From the NCBI GenBank assembly GCA_964430475.1, contig CAYSEQ010000005.1, positions 1-61,853 on the forward strand: 61,853 bases of DNA. The letters run 5' to 3'. Positions 7,358-43,810 of this stretch are shown here, piece by piece. The stretch is from an uncultured Gammaproteobacteria bacterium (lineage in GTDB: Bacteria; Patescibacteriota; Microgenomatia; UBA8517). Below the pieces are notes generated by a model. That model saw only the letters and a list, made by a program, of their open reading frames with translations, had not been told where the DNA came from and searched no databases. The stretch's first letter is position 1. Every line of letters starts with the position of its first letter. The translations under genes were made by a program, and so were the position numbers.

Positions 7358-8026
7358 ATGGATACAAAAATCTATAATCTTTCTCCTTCAACAATTTCCC
7401 TTTTGATTGAATGTCCAAGGTGTTTTTGGCTTCATATCAAGAAGGGTCACAAAAGACCAAGTGGAGCTTTCCCTTCACTTCCGGGTGGGATGGATCTAAA
7501 AATTAAGGAGTATTTCGACAAGTATAGGGGAAGTCTTCCTCCTGAGATTCAGGGAAAGGTTAGGGGAGTATTGTTTGAGGATTTGGAAATTCTTAATAAA
7601 TGGAGATACTGGAAGACATCGCTTTCTTTTAAAAAAGAAAATGTTAAAGTGTATGGCGCCTTTGACGATCTTTTGGTAGATGGTGACGTATTTATCCCGC
7701 TTGATTACAAAACAAGAGGAAGTTCCCCAAAAGGCGAGACTTTAGATTATTACCTTCACCAGCTTGATATCTATACCCTCCTTCTTAACCGAAACGGCTT
7801 TAAAACTGAGAATGAAGCCTACCTTATTTACTTTTATCCCAAAAAGATTTTTGAAGGAGGAATAGTAGAGTTTAGTGTTGAACCCAAGAAGGTTGTATCT
7901 TCTATTAAAAGGGCCATGGATTTAATAGATGAAGCAATCGGGATTTTAAATTCAGATGAACCTCCCTCGAGCCATAATGAGTGCGTATTTTGCAACTATG
8001 TAAATTCTTTCTCGGATTTTGATTAA
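7358..8026 (+). CDS. PD-(D/E)XK nuclease family protein (RecB/Cas4-like)
   Basis: LSPSTI...ECPRCFWL, GAFDDL, DYKT, QLDIY and C-terminal ECVFC. Confidence 0.85.
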   Translation: MDTKIYNLSPSTISLLIECPRCFWLHIKKGHKRPSGAFPSLPGGMDLKIKEYFDKYRGSLPPEIQGKVRGVLFEDLEILNKWRYWKTSLSFKKENVKVYGAFDDLLVDGDVFIPLDYKTRGSSPKGETLDYYLHQLDIYTLLLNRNGFKTENEAYLIYFYPKKIFEGGIVEFSVEPKKVVSSIKRAMDLIDEAIGILNSDEPPSSHNECVFCNYVNSFSDFD

Positions 8027-8131: not shown

Positions 8132-9394
8132 ATGTTTGTAGAAAGAGTAGTACCTTCAGTTGAATCCGAGCGAAGAGATGAGAGAAGTCCTCGCTATTTC
8201 GGCTCAATTGATTCTTTTTTGAAAGAAACTTTAATAACCTCGGAACCTCTTTGTCTTTCAGAATTGGAATTTCGGAATTTGAGAGAGATTACCTTAAGAA
8301 TTGTTTCGTTTATTGATAGATTTTCTTTAAAGGAAAATTGTATTGCTATTGGTGCAAATCCCAACATTGTAATTAGGAGTCTGATGATAGATAGCTATGG
8401 AGATTCTTCTATGCGCTACGGTGGACTTGATATATACCAGGATCCAAATTTGGGCTTTAAGGTTCTTGAAATTAACCCCAGGGTCCAGGCTCTAGGATTA
8501 CAAGACTTTAGACAAAAGGAGTTAGGAATTGTCAATCAACCGAATCTTTTTTCAGATTTACTGTCTTGGTTAAAGGGTAGAGGATTTGAGGAAATATTAG
8601 TTTTAGGTAGTAGAAAAAATCCTTTCTGGAGGGCTTATGAAGAGTTAACTCTAAACTTAAATCGTGAGGGATTTAATGCCCATTTTTGGGATGCTCAGAA
8701 ATTTTTAATTGAGAATAAGATGTCTGGTTATAATCCTGATTTAATTTTGAAATTCTGTAGTAATAAAATCTTTTTGGATAGCGATTATTCAGAAGAACTT
8801 ACAACTATTGTTGCCAAATACAGTATACCGATAATTAACCCTTTGCATTCTTCTTATTTTGGTTATAGAGGTTTTTTGGAAAAGTTAAGAGAGTTTATGC
8901 CTGATATAGTGCCTGGACAAAAGATTTTGAAATGCGATGCCTCAGATCAAAAGTTATTAGAGTTTCCATGGGTTAAGCTTGAAGCATCAGGCTATGAGTA
9001 TGTTGTTAATTACCGAGGTTTGAAACGCTGGGGTAAGGAAGCCCTCTTGGGTTTGATTCGGGGTGATATATTGTTTTCTAAGACTGTATTGCGAGATAGG
9101 AGCGGATCAGATGCATCTAAACTGAGGGAGGTTGCCTATGTTTTGGAGAATGTTCCTCCCGAAGAAATTGTTTGGCTGGCTCAGTCTAATGTTAGACCTT
9201 TAACCAGGGAACTGAGAACTAAAGAGGGTTTAGTGAAAATGGATATTTTGCACAGAGTGTATTGGTTCAAAGACGATGAGGGAAATGTTAATATTAGTTT
9301 GGAAGCTTTTGGGTGTACTGACTCTCAGTTGAAGCAATCTAAGGGAAAAATCAATGCAGGAACTGGTTATGCTATACCCGTAGTGATTGGATGA
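8132..9394 (+). CDS. Circularly permuted ATP-grasp (glutathionylspermidine-synthetase-like) ligase
   Basis: GLDIYQDPNLGFKVLEINPRVQALG resembles the D..G.f.vlExN motif; later WVKLEASG, WLAQSNV and DILHRVY elements. Confidence 0.55.
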   Translation: MFVERVVPSVESERRDERSPRYFGSIDSFLKETLITSEPLCLSELEFRNLREITLRIVSFIDRFSLKENCIAIGANPNIVIRSLMIDSYGDSSMRYGGLDIYQDPNLGFKVLEINPRVQALGLQDFRQKELGIVNQPNLFSDLLSWLKGRGFEEILVLGSRKNPFWRAYEELTLNLNREGFNAHFWDAQKFLIENKMSGYNPDLILKFCSNKIFLDSDYSEELTTIVAKYSIPIINPLHSSYFGYRGFLEKLREFMPDIVPGQKILKCDASDQKLLEFPWVKLEASGYEYVVNYRGLKRWGKEALLGLIRGDILFSKTVLRDRSGSDASKLREVAYVLENVPPEEIVWLAQSNVRPLTRELRTKEGLVKMDILHRVYWFKDDEGNVNISLEAFGCTDSQLKQSKGKINAGTGYAIPVVIG

Positions 9395-10140
9395 AAGATA
9401 TTAAAAACGAATCCATACTTTTAGCAGAAATAGAAGGTAATAGATACAAGGTTATCTTTGAGAAAGAAAGTTTTCTTACATTTTGTTCTGCTAGTCTTTC
9501 AAAAGTTTTTTTGGCGGTTGAATTTTTAAGGCTTCTTGACGAAAAGAAAATAGTTAACAGGGTAATAACCATCTCTAAAGAAGACTTGGAGGGTTATGGT
9601 ACTGATGTTTTGTATGATTTATATAAGGAAGGAAATTTGATAAAAATCGATGGACTTACCCTAATGGGATTGATGATAAAGTATAGCTGTAATTCCTCTG
9701 CCCTTATTTTGTCTAGATATTTTCTACCCAGAAGAAAAGTTTTACAAAGGAATGCGCACAGAATTTGGGGTTTAAAAGATGTTACTTTGACTAGTAAGAG
9801 GGGTGAGATTTTAACTTATTTTTCGTTAATGGATTTTCTGATTTTATTTAAGTATATCTTTTCAAAAGAGGGTGAGAATTGGGATTTTTTGAGGGAAAAG
9901 TTGAAAACATCTCGTAATATTTATTATCTTTTTGATCAATTGGAGATTGACATCTTGGGTAGTAAGTCCGGCACGCAACATCTAAACGGTGTTTATTGGA
10001 TTAGTAATTGTGGGTTATTTCGCTTGAAAGATAAGGTTTATTTCGCAGGCGCAAGTGTAAGTAGTGATAAAATATCCTCAGCTGTTAATAGGATAAGAGA
10101 AATAGGTAAGGTGCTGATTGCTGTCGCGGCTGGAGGTTAA
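9391..10140 (+). CDS. Serine hydrolase of the class A beta-lactamase/PBP fold, no signal peptide
   Basis: SxxK (FCSASLSK), SxN (MIKYSCNSSA), KxG (GSKSGT); 4-nt ATGA overlap with the upstream gene. Confidence 0.75.
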   Translation: MKDIKNESILLAEIEGNRYKVIFEKESFLTFCSASLSKVFLAVEFLRLLDEKKIVNRVITISKEDLEGYGTDVLYDLYKEGNLIKIDGLTLMGLMIKYSCNSSALILSRYFLPRRKVLQRNAHRIWGLKDVTLTSKRGEILTYFSLMDFLILFKYIFSKEGENWDFLREKLKTSRNIYYLFDQLEIDILGSKSGTQHLNGVYWISNCGLFRLKDKVYFAGASVSSDKISSAVNRIREIGKVLIAVAAGG

Positions 10141-10486: not shown

Positions 10487-13400
10487 GTGAAAAATTTTAA
10501 AATTTTATTTTTCAATAAAAATTCTTTTTGGATTAGCATTCTTCTTTTTCTTTTAACCTCTTTAGGAGCATATTATTCTTCTAACAGTCTTTTAGGGAAG
10601 AAAGAGCAATTAACTGAAACTCTGCAGCTGGAAGGACAAGGCCAAGTACAGTTCAAGCAAGGCAATCAGGAAGTCCAAGGAACAGTGTCAGGATATTTGA
10701 GGCCTCAGATCACATTTTTGGAGGGGACAAATGTTTTAATAGTGGAGGGTTGATACCGCTTGCTTCCACCGACGAGCCAGTTATAACTATAAGTGGGTAT
10801 GATCTAAAAGGTGATGCAGAAATCGAGATGTACGAAGCTGACGAGGGTTCGGTGATCAGGTATCTTGTCCACGATAAAGATGGAAATCAGATAAATAAGA
10901 ACCCAGATGTTAGCCAATTTCGATACATAACTTCGTTGAAGCAGAACCTGGGGACAGAAGGCTACACAAATACCAAAATTTCGCTTCCTTTTACAGAGAC
11001 AGGAATATTTTATCTAAAAGTCAAAATTGGTTCTATTAGCGCAGAATCCTTTGTTATAAGATCGAATTTTGGTGTTTTGGTAAGGGAGGGAGATAATCAG
11101 TTTATATTTTGGGGGCAAGATTTCAAGACCAAAAGAAGCGTTTCGGATGGAGTGATAAGGATAATGGATTTGCAGGATATTCCTAAGGAACTCCAGATAG
11201 TTTCCTTCGACACAGAGGGAATTGCTCGAGCAGATATTAATGCTATGGCAGATATAGCATTGGTTCAAAGGGGAGCTGATCGAGCAATTGTGCCTTTGAA
11301 TTTGAAATACATGAATCGTGAGAGTTATTATAAAGATTTTATACCGAAAGGAAGACCACTGAGGTATTTTATTTTTACTGATAGACCTCTTTATAAACCC
11401 GGAGACACCGTTTATTTTAAAGCAATTTTAAGAAATGATGACGATGCAAGATATTCGATTCCATCTGGAGAAGCCCTAGTGAGGATTTATAGATCCTCAA
11501 TTGATGCAAAGGTGGTCTTTGAGAAGAAAATTTCAATTTCAGAGAGAGGAACGATAGAAGGTCAATACCAAATTCCAGAAGATTCTAAAGTTGGTAATTA
11601 TCAATTGAGTGTAAATATTGATTCTCAAGTTGGGGAAGCTGATTATTGGAGTCATGAATTTTCATCTGGTTCAACTTCATTCGGCATTGAATACTTTAGA
11701 AAACCTGAGTTTTTTATTGATATCACAGCCCCTGTAACAGAATTGATAGCAGGCGATCGACTTACCTTCAAAATTAGTGGAACTTATTTTTCGGGTCAAC
11801 CCTTAATTGGTCAAAAAGTAAAATATGTAGTTTATTCGTCTGACTACTACCAGTACGATTATCTAACCAATCGACAAAAACCGATATTAAGTGATAACTA
11901 TAGATATGGCTATTGGACTGGTGGAATAGTTACAGAAGGAAATACAATACTGAATAAAGACGGGGAGGCAGAGGTAAATCTTGATACTAAGGTTAATTTT
12001 AGCGTGGGTTTAAATAAAATTTTTTCTATAGAGGTTACTACTGAAGGTGAAGTACAAAGCCCCGCTTTTAGTAGGAAAAACATCTTAATCTATTCTGGGG
12101 AGTATGCAATATTCAGGAAGGATGTAGGGCGAAATGAAAAAGTAAATACAACTGTTGACTTACCCATTATATTAATTCCGTACAATAACAACTTTAGTGT
12201 TTCAGAAGTGGAATTGAAGGCAAAGATTCAACGTAGTGATTGGATCAAGTATGATGACCCAAACCAAAAGTATCCAGTCTATAAAGAAGTAAGAGAAAGT
12301 TTACCCGATATCTTTACAAAAACGGACAGTCAAGGTGAGGCCAATTTTAGGTTTACTCCCTCCAAGACTGGATTATATACGTTGACAGTTGAAGGTAAAG
12401 ACTCTCGAGGGAATTTAATATCTCATGAGTTTTTCATTTATGTCACTGAGGAAGGACAGCCAGTATATGAAAAGGACAAAGTCTTTAAAGATATATCCAT
12501 ATCGGCTGATAAACGGAAATACTTTCCTAATGAATCCGTAAGGTTTTACATTTATTCTGAGATTCCTGATAGAGATATCTTCTTGTCATTAGAAAGGGGT
12601 AGGCTTGATAGATTTCGAGTTGTCCACCTTGATGGTAAAAATACTTATGTTGATATCCCCCTTGTCAACACTGATATACCTAATATATATGCTAATGTTT
12701 CAAGCTTCTCCGATAAAAGCTTAAATTTTGACGAAATTAACTTGAGTGTCTCGTCAGATAGCAAAAAAGTTGTTATAAATATAACTCCTAATAGTAAAAG
12801 ATTCGGTCCTGGGGAGACTGTGACTGTTGATATCCTTACTACAGATGTAGAGGGTAAACCTGTCTCAGGGGATCTTGCTTTATGGGCAGTTGATAAAGCT
12901 ATATTTGAACTTTCGTATAGTAGACTTGGGAATATATTTGATACTTTTTGGAAGGAGAGGTTTAATTCAACAAGCAGAGCCCATTCATTAGAAGGTATTT
13001 TTTTCTATGTTCCTGCGGAAATGGGTGGTTGTTTTGTTGGGGGAACTAAGGTTTTGATGGCTGATGGTAAGCTGAAGAACATAGAAGATGTTAAGATAGG
13101 GGATTATGTTTTGACGAGAAAGAGTGGTTACGATTCCACATTGGTCAAAGCGAGAGTTCTTAAAACTTACAAAGCTGAGGAGTCAGGTTATTTGATAATC
13201 AACGGAAATCTTAAAGTTACAGCTGACCACATAGTTTGGTCAAACGACGCCTGGAAGGAGGCTGGGAGTATTCAGATCGGGGACACCCTACTTGACGATA
13301 AAGGAAGGAAACTGAAGGTAAATTCTATCGAATGGCAGACGGAGAAGGTTAGTGTCTATAACCTTTTGGTTGAAAATTACCATAGCTATTTTGCAAATGG

Positions 13401-15795
13401 CATTTGGGTTCACAATGATAAAGTTTCTGCAAGAACTGTCTATAAAGATACAGCTTATTGGAACCCCTCGATTAGTACTGATTCGTCAGGCAGGGCACAA
13501 GTGAGGTTTAAATTACCCGATAATCTAACAACTTGGGTGATAGCTGCGGTTGCAGCAACAGCTGATACACAAGTTGGGCAGAGTACAACTGAAATTGTTG
13601 TTACAAAAGATGTAATAATTCGCCCAATACTACCTAATATATTTCGTAAAGGAGATGAGGTTGTAGTTTCAGCGTTAGTTCAAAACTTTACCCAGCAGGA
13701 TCACACTTTTGAAGTAGGCCTTGAATTTGATTCGGGGGAAGTGGAGCAAGAAGAACAAAATTCTGCGCTGATAAAATCTAACACAATGCAGAAGTTTCAC
13801 TGGAAGATAAAGCCAACGAAGGAAAATGAGAGATCAAAGCTTGTTTTTTCAGCAAAGGTTAAGGATAACCCTAGCTTGTCTGATATTGTTAGACAAGAAA
13901 TTCCTATAAGAGCTTTCGGTTTTGAAGAGGAAAGAGGGGAATCGGGAGAGGGAACGAAAAGTTATAACATTAAGCTTGCAGTTGATATCGACAAAGATAA
14001 ATCAAAAATTACTTTGTACTTAACGCCTAATATCCTAAGTTCTCTTCAACCAACTATGAAATATTTAATCAATTATCCTTATGGATGTGTAGAACAAACC
14101 ACCAGTAGATTTGTACCAGCGATTATAGCAAAGACCAACCCTGATTTATTTTCGGATGTTCCCGAAGATAAGAACTTGGATAAAATAATACAAAAAAGTA
14201 TCGAACTTCTCACAAGCCAGCAACAGAAGGATGGAGGTTGGACTTGGTGGTTTAGGGGCAGATCGGACCCCTTTATAGTTTCTTATGTTATAGAATATCT
14301 TTTACAAGCAAAGAAGTTAGGTTTCAAGGTTGAGGATGAGGTACTAGCTAGAGCCAAGAGATATTTAGAGGAAGAATTTACCTTTGACCCAAATACTGGC
14401 CAAAAAATACCATACAATAAAGAGGAGTCAATCGCAAAGAATTACGGTCTAATTTTGCTTGGTGAAAAAGAAAAGGTTAAGCGATTGACTGACCTTAATA
14501 ATATAAGCCCCGATTTTCTATCCATTGCGGTAATGGCTAATTATCTAAATGGTGATAAAAACCCACAGAGTAATGGTTTGATTCAACTTTCCTCGTTAGC
14601 AAAAACTCAAGGGGATGTTGTTTTCTGGGAAGCAGGGAATAAATTAAATTTTGGTTCAAAAGAAGCATCGACTGCTTTAGCTATAAGAGCTCTTCTTCTT
14701 GCCGGAGGAGATAGAGATTTAGTGATTAAAGGAGCAAAATATCTAATTCGACACAAAAACCTATATTGGTCAAATACTTTTGCAGCATCCCAGGCAGTAA
14801 GAGCTTTGGCTGAGTTTTCGAATACATTTAAACAGCTAGAGCCAAATTATAGTTACATTGTTACCTTGGATGGGAAGCAAATTTCCCAAGGAAAAGTTAC
14901 TGATGCAAAACAAGTCATAAAAGAGATTGATGTACCAATTTCAAAAATAAGACCAGATGGTTCGACACTTTCTGTGGTTAAAGAAGGTGAAGGACAAATT
15001 TATTCGACTCTATTAGTGAGAGAGTTTCATACAGATAAAAATGCTAAGGCTGTAAATCGCGGTTTTTCGATCAAAAAAGAATTTGTTAATGAAAGAGGAT
15101 TGGGTTTTAGCTTTGGAGTTGGAGATATCGTTATTGTAAAAATTACAGTAAAAGGTTTACAAGCAGAAGAAAATTATGGTGTTATCAAGGACGATTTGCC
15201 TGCGGGTTTGGTTCCTATAAACCAATCATTTAAAAATGAGAGATTCAACCAACCGGATTATTATGGGTATGGGGGTTTGGTAGGTGGAGAAGTAACAGAG
15301 AATGGGATTATTTTGTCGCTTTATAAAATAAATGCTGGTGAAAACATTTACACTTATAGGGCAAGGGTAGTTAATGCAGGAAAGTTTATCGTTCCTCCAG
15401 TTTCTATTTCACTGATGTATTCTCCTGAGATCTCTGGAGTATCGGAGGTAGGGTCAATTGAGGTAGTTGAAGAATCTAAATATATCGGAATTGAGTCAAT
15501 TGTTGAAAAGAGTAGAGAAAGCGTGAGGAGTACCCTGAATCAAAAAGAAAATCTTATTAGTTTATTTCTGATAGTCATTTTAACATTGACAGTTCTATCT
15601 TATTTATTCCTTAGGAATGGAGGAATTGTAAAAATAAAGGTTTTCAAAAGTCGATTGGCTAACTTAGTTAAGGATAAGGTTAAAAAACTTTTTAGAGTAG
15701 GAGAGCATTATCGATCAGAAGCAATTACAAGAAGGGTAAAAAGTGATAATTTTCCAGGCTCTTCTAATGATGACAAAAATAGTGGTGATAGTTAA
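10487..15795 (+). CDS. Alpha-2-macroglobulin family thioester protein with Hint insertion; N-terminal 10487-10719 is out of frame with the main ORF 10750-15795
   Basis: FIFTDRPLYKPGDTVYF (MG2), DTAYWNP, FKLPDNLTTW, YPYGCVEQ thioester (14086-14097), YTYRARVVNAGKFIVPP; signal/TM segment in the 10487 ORF; C-terminal TM. Confidence 0.92.
13030..13416 (+). other. Hint (intein-like, BIL/PT-HINT type) domain, 129 aa, no homing endonuclease
   Basis: CFVGGTKVLMADG (block A), VTADH (TxxH, block B), VYNLLVENYHSYFANG (block F), VHN (block G) followed by Asp. Confidence 0.92.
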
Positions 15796-16689
15796 AGTAT
15801 TTTTCATTGTCTTCTTATTGGTAGTAACAGGGTCTGTCTTTTATAGTAAATCTTCTTACCCCGTTTATAAAAGTAGTGTCCCGACTACATCGGAAACTAC
15901 TTATAATTTAAAAATTAACCCTGTGCACTGGATTAAATTTTTTGATGAACAAACGTTTTTTTGGCGATAAATAGAAGTAAGAATAAACTATCATTTTCGA
16001 CTCGCGTAAGGGGTGGAATAATTCCCCACCATTTGCTGGTTTCGGATGTAATAGCGGATTTTTTTAGTAGGCTTTCAACTCAAAAACCTACAACAATTAT
16101 TTTAGTTGGACCAAATCATTACGAAAGAGGTAATTTTGAGGCATTGACGAGTCTTTACGATTGGGAAACCCCATTAGGTATTGTTCATGCTGATGAATCT
16201 ATAATTGGCGCACTTATTGGAAGTCAGTTAGTAGTGGTTGACGAAAAGACTCTACCAGATGATCATTCCTTATCGGCTATTATGCCTTTTATTAAATATT
16301 ATTTACCTGATGCGAAAGTAGTACCTATTTTAGTAAGTAGAAGTTTATCGAAAGAAGAATCGGAGATCCTAGCTACCAAGTTGAGTAGTTTGTTTAATGA
16401 TAATACTGTAGTAGTTGCTTCAGTTGACTTTTCGCATTATTTATCAAGTACCGAGGCGAGAGATAAAGACGAAATTACTCTTCAGATATTAAAAGAATTT
16501 GATTACCAAAGATTGTATTTGCTAGATAACGACTATTTAGATAGTCCAGCATCTGTTGGGATTTTGCTTATGACAATGCAGAAATTAGGTAGTACAAATA
16601 TGGAGATTTTATTCCACACAAATTCCGGAGAAATACTTAACAACAAGTTCATTCCCACTACCAGTTACTTTGAAATTGTTTATTATTAG
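15767..16689 (+). CDS. MEMO1/AmmeMemoRadiSam protein B family with N-terminal membrane anchor; split by a frameshift at T7 15956-15962
   Basis: GGIIPHH, LVGPNH, DHS, VVASVDFSHY; upstream frame gives a TM segment and ...KFFDEQTFF; adding one T joins FF-LAINRSKNK. Confidence 0.8.
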
Positions 16690-43599: not shown

Positions 43600-43724
43600 T
43601 TTTATTAAAAAGATTGAAGTTAGGAAGTTGTGTCTTTTGCACCTTTTTCTTGGGGATTTTAAAGATAGCCTGAATATTTTTGCCACTCGCGACAGGCTTC
43701 TGATTGTTTATTTTTTCTTGCAGG

Positions 43725-43810
43725 TGCCCAGGGTGGGAGTCGAACCCACACGAGCTTTTAGGCTCATAGCTTTTTGAGAGCTACGTGTCTGCCAATTCCA
43801 CCACCTGGGC
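43725..43810 (-). tRNA. tRNA-Leu(CAA)
   Basis: GCCCAGG acceptor stem, GGAATTGGCAGACAC D-arm, anticodon stem TAGCT/AGCTA with loop CTCAAAA, long variable arm, GGTTCGACTCC T-arm; CCA not fully encoded (ACCT). Confidence 0.93.

Follow-up and report, generated by a model that had tools for sequence, protein, structure and literature searches.

A Hint domain in the bait loop of an alpha-2-macroglobulin

We analyzed a 61,853-nucleotide (nt) stretch of DNA, referred to here as the window, from contig CAYSEQ010000005.1 of assembly GCA_964430475.1 (Microgenomatia UBA8517). As judged by homology, one of its genes encodes a full-length bacterial alpha-2-macroglobulin (A2M) with an intact CVEQ thioester motif, and a Hint domain of the type-A bacterial intein-like (BIL)/PT-HINT kind, catalytically complete by its residues, is inserted in the bait loop of this protein. 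Sequence searches show that most members of a large Microgenomates clade of the candidate phyla radiation (CPR), hundreds of relatives among them, have this combination. Proteins of this kind can probably open or reseal the trigger loop by themselves. The outcome that we favor, at about even odds, is that the chain ends up broken, so that the protein would mature autocatalytically into two chains and/or fire itself with no protease involved. Coordinates below are those of the window, features are on the forward strand (+) unless noted, and residue numbers (C761, N889, etc.) count along the main 1681-amino-acid (aa) open reading frame (ORF) only.

The Hint domain covers C761-N889 (129 aa; 13030..13416), as delimited by Pfam, a PDB match, and its motifs. 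The insert starts with CFVGG at residue 761 and ends with VHN at residue 889, and its flanks read ...FFYVPAEMGG|C and N|DKVSARTVYKDTAYWNP. Upstream lies the residual bait linker RAHSLEGIFFYVPAEMGG (aa 743-760; 12976..13029), which ends in an invariant Gly-Gly ahead of the Hint, and downstream lie the +1 residue Asp890, the +2 residue Lys891, and the alpha'NT plug segment DKVSARTVYKDTAYW (13417..13461), in which R895 and Y898 correspond to R732 and F735 of human A2M. When Escherichia coli YfhM was added to the family alignment, KERFNSTSRAHSLEGIFFYVPAEMGG aligned with YfhM 921-949, QKRYGADIYDIYGQVIEGQGRLAALRFGG. This puts the Hint insertion point at approximately YfhM G949/D950, within the bait region of this protein, also called ECAM (R923-~R956). 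The ECAM bait region takes in R956 as well as R923-L942, a stretch found disordered once elastase has cut (PMC4498604). From the YfhM alignment and these limits, the Hint therefore lies inside the bait loop, near its C-terminal end.

The register of alpha'NT was set from the alignment coordinates of a PDB search together with the motif R..[FY].[DE]T..W. Query residue 893 aligned with residue 730 of human A2M (6tav), so that R895-T-V-Y898 is equivalent to human R732-K-Y-F735, of which R732..F735 are the conserved alpha'NT "plug" residues (PMC9352918, Harwood 2022). In the family alignment, the R895 position was Arg in 120/120 sequences, and position 898 was Phe or Tyr in 118/120. The distance from the His-Asn of the Hint to the plug Arg was 4-10 residues, with a mode of 5, over 226 Hint copies; in this gene, the C-terminal junction of the Hint lies 5 residues before the plug. 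A shorter PDB query (aa 881-1017), meant to show the alpha'NT alignment, aligned only over its MG domain, to C5.

An AlphaFold2 model of aa 575-1100 had a mean pLDDT of 83, with 84-94 for the Hint and low-confidence linkers on both of its sides, at aa 743-759 (RAHSLEGIFFYVPAEMG, pLDDT<50) and aa 893-899. The 17 predicted-disordered residues of RAHSLEGIFFYVPAEMG are thus left upstream of a folded 129-aa Hint, compared with the ~30-40 unstructured residues of a typical bait. A preliminary description of the gene had put the Hint "in place of" the bait region. The alignment and the model show instead that the Hint is nested within the loop and does not replace it, with ~17 flexible residues remaining upstream. 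By analogy, the Hint can be said to fill the slot of the ANA domain in complement C3/C4/C5.

The rest of the protein matches an A2M. MG2, A2M_BRD, A2M, TED_complement, and bMG10 all exceed their Pfam cut-offs and follow one another in A2M/TEP order, and the main ORF (10750..15795) is laid out as MG domains, BRD, Hint, MG, CUB/TED, CTMG, a C-terminal transmembrane (TM) helix, and a basic tail. The MG2 domain (aa 206-304, 11365..11661; PF01835, E=3.8e-20) is followed by A2M_BRD (aa 582-721, 12493..12912; PF07703, E=1e-11), which ends in the LNK helices (aa ~716-733), and, beyond the Hint, by the A2M family MG domain (aa 901-989, 13450..13716; PF00207, E=2.7e-21). The N-terminal part of the thioester domain (aa 1100-1208, 14047..14373; PF07678, TED_complement) aligned with SaA2M 1172-1292 and holds the thioester motif C1113-V-E-Q1116 within YPYGCVEQT (14086..14097), recognized as a sequence motif; the C, E, and Q of CxEQ were invariant in 120/120 closest relatives. 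The C-terminal MG domain, bMG10 (aa 1438-1560, 15061..15429; PF17973, E=6.4e-18), keeps the MY of the ECAM E-x-M-Y motif (SLMYSPE). In a search of PDB sequences, the flanks of the Hint matched Salmonella, E. coli, and human A2M, and the AlphaFold2 fragment matched ECAM, SaA2M, A2Moo, and C3/C4/C5 at E~1e-15. These comparisons assign the scaffold to the A2M/TEP superfamily; it does not belong to the YfhM lipoprotein/pbpC subtype. A search across the window for a second A2M or a second Hint found neither; the single Hint is in frame.

Identity and catalytic residues of the Hint domain

The Hint motifs are Cys761 (block A), T824-A-D-H827 (block B, TxxH), VYNL...H..F (block F), and H888-N889 (block G). 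In the whole protein, the PT-HINT profile PF07591 matched aa 769-890 with E=1.3e-16 and 61.6 bits, and the excised 129 aa matched it with E=5.6e-18 and 66 bits, against a cut-off of 27.7. Among PDB sequences, the domain aligned from residue 1 through His-Asn with the Clostridium thermocellum bacterial intein-like domain 2lwy (E=3.5e-15). The 129 aa include no endonuclease insert, the +1 residue is Asp890 and not a Cys, Ser, or Thr nucleophile, and the host is extracytoplasmic by its TM/signal segments and extracytoplasmic domains. At the profile level, the PT-HINT match is far beyond chance, and it recurs in 226 independent homologs. Type-A BILs have His-Asn and no +1 nucleophile, form an N-terminal thioester, and are cut at their C terminus by Asn cyclization (PMC4031507), and PT-HINT domains are regarded as autoproteolytic releasing peptidases (PMC3482391).

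Two other assignments were rejected. A canonical intein is at odds with Asp890 at +1, with a subthreshold score for the intein splicing profile PF14890 (27-30.7 bits; cut-off 35.8), and with the kind of host. A Hedgehog-type Hog domain was discarded on a PF01079 score of 21.5-22.2 bits (cut-off 29.7) and for want of an adduct-recognition region; alpha'NT follows directly after the His-Asn of the Hint, where a Hog domain would have a sterol/adduct-recognition region.

Conservation of the Hint domain across the clade

PT-HINT was found at the same spot in all 120 best hits (45-62% identity) from a 5.8-billion-protein collection, with Daviesbacteria, Gottesmanbacteria, Woesebacteria, Woykebacteria, and Blackburnbacteria among the named hosts. 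Members carry the database names "Alpha-2-macroglobulin domain protein" and "Intein C-terminal splicing domain-containing protein" or are listed as hypothetical. In a conservation sample of 226 complete Hint copies from the Microgenomates clade, Gly-1, Cys1, and His-Asn were each present in 226/226. The +1 residue was Gln in 124 copies, Asp in 48, Glu in 32, Gly in 13, Asn in 3, Lys in 3, Ser in 2, and Leu in 1, so that a nucleophile at +1 is rare (the two Ser among 226). The +2 residue was Lys in 222/226, and three further copies have Lys at +1. This Lys could take part in catalysis, act as a nucleophile, or make an A2M activation contact. Lys also precedes the Gly run in many Hint-less forms (the Lys891 codon of this gene is at 13420-13422), and in ECAM, K955-R956-G-G belongs to the bait segment that, once cleaved, binds the C-terminal MG domain.

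Several claims of the preliminary description hold up against these data. The 129-aa Hint (C761-N889) between AEMGG and DKVSARTVYKDTAYWNP, with CVEQ intact downstream, was recovered in the ORF and in the Pfam and PDB matches, and its assignment to the BIL/PT-HINT type with a non-nucleophilic +1 residue agrees with the 66-bit PF07591 score, the 2lwy match, and the invariant Cys1 and His-Asn. The YfhM alignment proposed as a check of the bait register placed the insertion in the loop, just upstream of the R732/F735 equivalents, and the proposed search for A2M plus Hint across Patescibacteria yielded the clade-wide set of 226 complete copies.

In a scan of species-representative genomes, the Hint occurred, among the matches listed, only in seven CPR-type loci. 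We also looked for a Hint ≤8 kb on either side of 73 A2M loci from other phyla (Acidobacteriota, Planctomycetota, Armatimonadota, and others) and found none among the matches listed. The contigs of four loci with a CPR-type Hint-A2M (L002, L003, L004, and L008) are titled Nevskiaceae, "uncultured Gammaproteobacteria" (one of 1.57 Mb), or Micavibrio. They are probably mislabeled metagenome-assembled genomes; the alternative is real transfer outside the CPR.

To assemble the clade set, we searched 1.84 billion representatives with the C-terminal 792 aa, using no profile, and scanned the proteins with a local Hint hidden Markov model. The Hint was absent from 24/239 full-length clade proteins (~10%), in which a poly-Gly linker replaces it, e.g., ...HSLEGINVSMAEGGGGGGGGDIREVFEDTAYWNP or ...AEKGGGGGDVRSVFKD.... 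In Hint-less P0127, P0139, P0149, P0220, and others, 4-9 glycines, AE(K)GGGGG..R, make up nearly the whole bait (in locus L009, at about 7950-8010). Ordinary proteases would hardly cut such a bait, and one idea is that it is aimed at Gly-Gly endopeptidases of the lysostaphin/M23 type. The Hint-less proteins are scattered in the tree, and their nearest relatives are Hint bearing: with Hint-less P0149 as the query, Hint-bearing proteins came first, and four other Hint-less proteins were among the best 120. By Fitch parsimony over 25 neighbor-joining trees, 24 of them bootstraps, the 24 Hint-less taxa need 16-20 changes, so that the state changed independently, mostly by in-frame loss, no fewer than 16 times. 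The deepest branches are Hint-less, and these deepest relatives are also without the C-terminal helix. Across the clade set, the presence of the Hint showed no covariation with double membrane anchoring, as both forms mostly have N- and C-terminal TM segments.

At the DNA level, runs of Gly codons flank the Hint in most members, which offers an easy route to its in-frame deletion. The Hint is more conserved than its host (46% versus 38% mean pairwise identity) and codiverges with the host A2M (r=0.58). Since the Hint-less relatives keep CxEQ and all domains, the scaffold appears to work without the Hint; since ~90% of lineages retain the Hint despite its easy deletion, and since it is more conserved than, and codiverges with, its host, we infer that the Hint is dispensable for the scaffold and normally kept by selection.

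Possible consequences of Hint processing for the thioester

Experiments in the A2M family have shown that a Gly/Ser bait is functional and that the trigger is the loss of chain continuity; after the cut, the alpha'NT plug moves out of the MG2-MG3-LNK channel. Complement proteins are not triggered when furin cuts on the N-terminal side of ANA, whereas a cut on its C-terminal side frees alpha'NT and triggers (PMC9352918). In the Hint-bearing A2Ms, the corresponding elements run from the LNK helix through ~17 flexible residues of the bait and Gly-Gly|Cys-Hint-His-Asn|(Q/D/E)-Lys to the alpha'NT plug (R..F), 4-10 residues further on. After export and folding, Cys761 would undergo an N-S acyl shift at the Gly760-Cys761 bond, and cyclization of Asn889 would sever the Asn889-Asp890 bond. 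No canonical splicing branch would be open to the protein, because the +1 residue is non-nucleophilic. The cut at Asn889 would release the N terminus of alpha'NT at the point where a bait-protease cut (A2M) or a convertase cut (C3) exposes the thioester via a conformational change, so that the Hint could serve as a self-removing equivalent of ANA. A cut at Gly760-Cys761 alone would leave the bulky stopper on alpha'NT, as in furin-processed C3, and would be non-triggering. Beyond the architecture, the processing itself, its rate, and an end state in which the chain is broken rather than religated are what we infer from these features.

A more specific version of this scheme, which we put forward only tentatively, treats the Hint as a self-removing stopper, a built-in "convertase plus ANA." Asn cyclization would release the plug and fire the conformational change, the thioester of the membrane-anchored protein would be exposed on a timer or by a chemical cue and would bond covalently to anything close by, be it a host-cell surface, an attacking enzyme, or the cell's own envelope, and the Gly thioester would constitute a second acyl-transfer site.

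Several considerations weigh against autocatalytic maturation or self-firing. Self-processing is a prediction for every family member, the AlphaFold2 fragment has a pTM of only 0.49, and the window's own A2M copy is frameshifted near its 5' end, after codon 88. The near-invariant Lys at +2 could belong to the A2M and have no part in the Hint chemistry (cf. K955-R956-G-G of ECAM). A protease trap that always fires on its own would be wasted, so that a purpose must be assumed, such as a timer, covalent attachment, or C3/TEP1-like two-chain maturation. Finally, aminolysis allows type-A BILs to rejoin their flanks, "although cleavage products dominate" (PMC4031507); religation would be favored here by the A2M fold, which keeps both flanks close; and the AE(K)GGGGG..R linkers of the Hint-less relatives, in proteins that keep CxEQ and all domains, resemble the would-be spliced product.

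These last three points also speak for BIL-type splicing, in which the freed +1 alpha-amine would attack the Gly760 thioester by the very aminolysis route of type-A BILs and yield a religated single-chain A2M with a Gly-rich bait, ...AEMGG-DKVSAR.... In that case, the Hint would play no part in triggering: it would help folding or export, or would simply be a harmless intein-like passenger passed on vertically. Gly-1 would give the least hindered thioester, a functional A2M is compatible with a Gly/Ser bait (PMC9352918), and the scattered presence and absence, with 16-20 events, is like that of intein-like elements. We nevertheless regard splicing as doubtful, if well worth considering. Cleavage products dominate in the type-A BILs tested (PMC4031507), and the +1 residue is Q/D/E, not the small Ala or Gly that would favor aminolysis. 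Asn cyclization would break the chain, if only transiently, at the alpha'NT plug, and retraction of the plug would compete with religation. An easily deleted passenger should neither last in ~90% of lineages nor outconserve its host, and a homing endonuclease or its remnant is absent from the 129 aa. The earlier proposal that the protein fires its thioester without a protease is, in this light, one outcome among others, as type-A BILs can also religate and Hint-less relatives do without the Hint. The alternative offered with it, an A2M left almost without a bait by excision, is matched in nature by the Hint-less AE(K)GGGGG..R forms. Host attachment and Hedgehog-like transfer by this A2M are speculation.

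A conditional switch, which we think unlikely, would keep the Hint intact at rest, poised at the thioester equilibrium, until a cue resolves it, and the protein would act as a covalent trap or adhesin. The cues considered were an external nucleophile or thiol, a change in redox state or pH, and a protease cut in the 17-residue upstream linker; in a variant, a second acceptor could take over the Gly thioester, as in Hedgehog. Some inteins are known to splice conditionally. With its predicted disorder, the upstream linker might still be open to proteases, the conservation of the junctions (GG|CF and HN|[QDE]K) exceeds the needs of the fold, and the terminal TM segments would anchor the protein at the cell surface. 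However, the TM anchoring is not tied to the presence of the Hint, the sequence gives no sign of regulation, and neither a sensor element nor an adduct-recognition region nor a partner gene came to light, save for a Memo-like neighbor that occurs in Hint-less loci as well.

It is highly improbable that the Hint has no chemistry, as an inactive structural or bait-like insert, an artifact, or part of a dead gene in this genome: the window copy is frameshifted after codon 88, and Hint activity here is a prediction, but none of the catalytic positions varies across 226 independent sequences, which come from many assemblies, the rest of the 1681-codon ORF is intact, the window has one Hint only, in frame, and inactive Hint domains normally lose Cys1 or Asn.

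Gene structure, membrane segments, and genomic neighborhood

The gene had first been described as one span, 10487-15795. The main ORF accounts for 10750-15795, and its 1681 codons are otherwise intact apart from the 5' frameshift. The N-terminal 88 codons of the A2M gene, with the true N terminus, lie in another frame, as a separate 88-aa ORF at 10487..10753. Homologs are continuous across PQIYISGGEQGYSSGGMIALASTDEP, and the window gives PQITFLEGTNVLIVEG followed by a stop in one frame and SGGLIPLASTDEP in the next. Because homologs read unbroken where the window splits between two frames, one base is evidently missing from the G/T run at GGAGGGTTGA (about 10745-10753). Either the short G/T run was misassembled, or the 1-nt frameshift is a mutation that inactivated the gene very recently. 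Reading of the TGA at 10751-10753 as Gly (code 25), which would join both ORFs, was rejected, as another stop follows a few codons on; the 1-nt indel accounts for the homology seen in both frames.

A membrane anchor/signal segment is predicted at 10526-10576 (aa 14-30 of the 88-aa ORF), and a C-terminal TM helix, LISLFLIVILTLTVLSYLFL, at 15553-15612; the helix is followed by a Lys/Arg-rich tail and is present in most clade members. Since the termini are hydrophobic at both ends in this A2M and in most relatives, the protein is predicted to be a membrane-tethered protein of the cell surface, and both chains would remain membrane tethered after any Hint cleavage.

Directly downstream of the A2M gene is a Memo-like gene (15961..16689; PF01875, E=2.5e-33). 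A Memo-like gene adjoins A2M in 6/8 related loci (L002, L003, L005, L006, L008, and the Hint-less L009), where it often overlaps the end of the A2M ORF. Two overlapping ORFs upstream (8132-10140), one of 420 aa with no Pfam match and one of 249 aa that is class-A beta-lactamase-like (PF13354, E=3e-6), are not conserved beside A2M in related loci. A conserved cell-wall partner like pbpC was not found at this locus or at the related loci. The window otherwise has the content of an ordinary chromosome (DnaB, GyrA, a P-type ATPase, an H+-PPase, CofD, an S41 peptidase, and one tRNA-Leu); the tRNA-Leu(CAA), at 43723-43810 on the reverse strand (-), was the sole Rfam/ARAGORN match in the 61.8-kb window.

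Novelty and significance

Searches of the literature that paired A2M with intein, Hint, PT-HINT, or CPR yielded no description of the combination. The preliminary description, which knew of no account of the architecture, was thus right as far as publications go, but the combination is already auto-annotated in databases and is not unique to this gene. A2M and PT-HINT are each known kinds of domain; what appears to be new is that one is nested in the other at the trigger point, and that most of a whole clade has this arrangement.

To our knowledge, all A2M/complement-family proteins studied to date depend on an external protease for the break in their bait or ANA region. If the proposed self-processing occurs, the proteins described here would be the first natural A2M/complement family with a built-in trigger or built-in maturation. 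They would also provide a natural test of the "chain discontinuity/plug-in-channel" model, with matched Hint-less relatives as controls, and would show BIL/PT-HINT domains, otherwise familiar from variable adhesins and the release of toxins, in a new setting, the loop of a folded machine. The hosts are uncultured Microgenomates that probably live attached to other cells, and the system may bear on protease defense or attachment in CPR surface biology. Protease-free, self-arming reagents for covalent capture could be inspired by it.

Comparison with known systems

The closest known scaffolds are the thioester-type bacterial A2Ms YfhM/ECAM and SaA2M (5a42, 4u48, and 4rtd), which share the order MG, BRD, MG, CUB/TED with CxEQ, and C-terminal MG, are monomeric and membrane tethered, and have the bait loop at the same place. 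The Microgenomates protein is distant from them in sequence (E~1e-14 to 1e-18 over parts of the protein), and it has a folded Hint and a Gly-rich linker where they have a disordered bait of ~35 residues. YfhM/ECAM is held by a lipoprotein lipid anchor, in contrast to the TM helices at both termini here; the N-terminal TM segment is without a lipobox context comparable to that of YfhM, and the C-terminal TM helix is extra. The neighbor is Memo-like, and there is no pbpC as there is for YfhM.

The Hint itself is like type-A BIL/PT-HINT domains such as 2lwy in size, in blocks A, B, F, and G, in Cys1 and His-Asn, in the missing +1 nucleophile and endonuclease, and in its secreted host. Known BIL/PT-HINT domains directly precede toxin domains or are located in the variable parts of adhesin-like proteins, and they release a C-terminal module (PMC3482391), whereas the Hint described here is nested in a loop whose continuity controls the activation of the host protein. 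Canonical class 1 mini-inteins, such as that of Mtu RecA (2in0), share the Hint fold, Cys1, TxxH, and His-Asn, with a weak match (E~3e-4 to 7e-4). Unlike them, the Hint has no +1 Cys, Ser, or Thr and falls below the PF14890 cut-off, and it sits in a fast-evolving secreted host, at a flexible-linker site rather than a conserved active site, with vertical inheritance.

In complement C3/C4/C5, ANA takes the same topological slot as the Hint. ANA is helical and is removed by an external convertase, whereas the Hint is beta rich and would be able to sever itself at both ends; there is no homology between them, the likeness is one of analogy only, and a Pfam search of the A2M ORF gave no ANA domain match. 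The engineered "tabula rasa" human A2M with a Gly/Ser bait (Harwood et al.) resembles both the Hint-less linkers and the would-be spliced product in having a featureless Gly-rich bait, and such a bait still supports the native fold. The engineered baits are of wild-type length or longer, whereas the natural linkers are much shorter.

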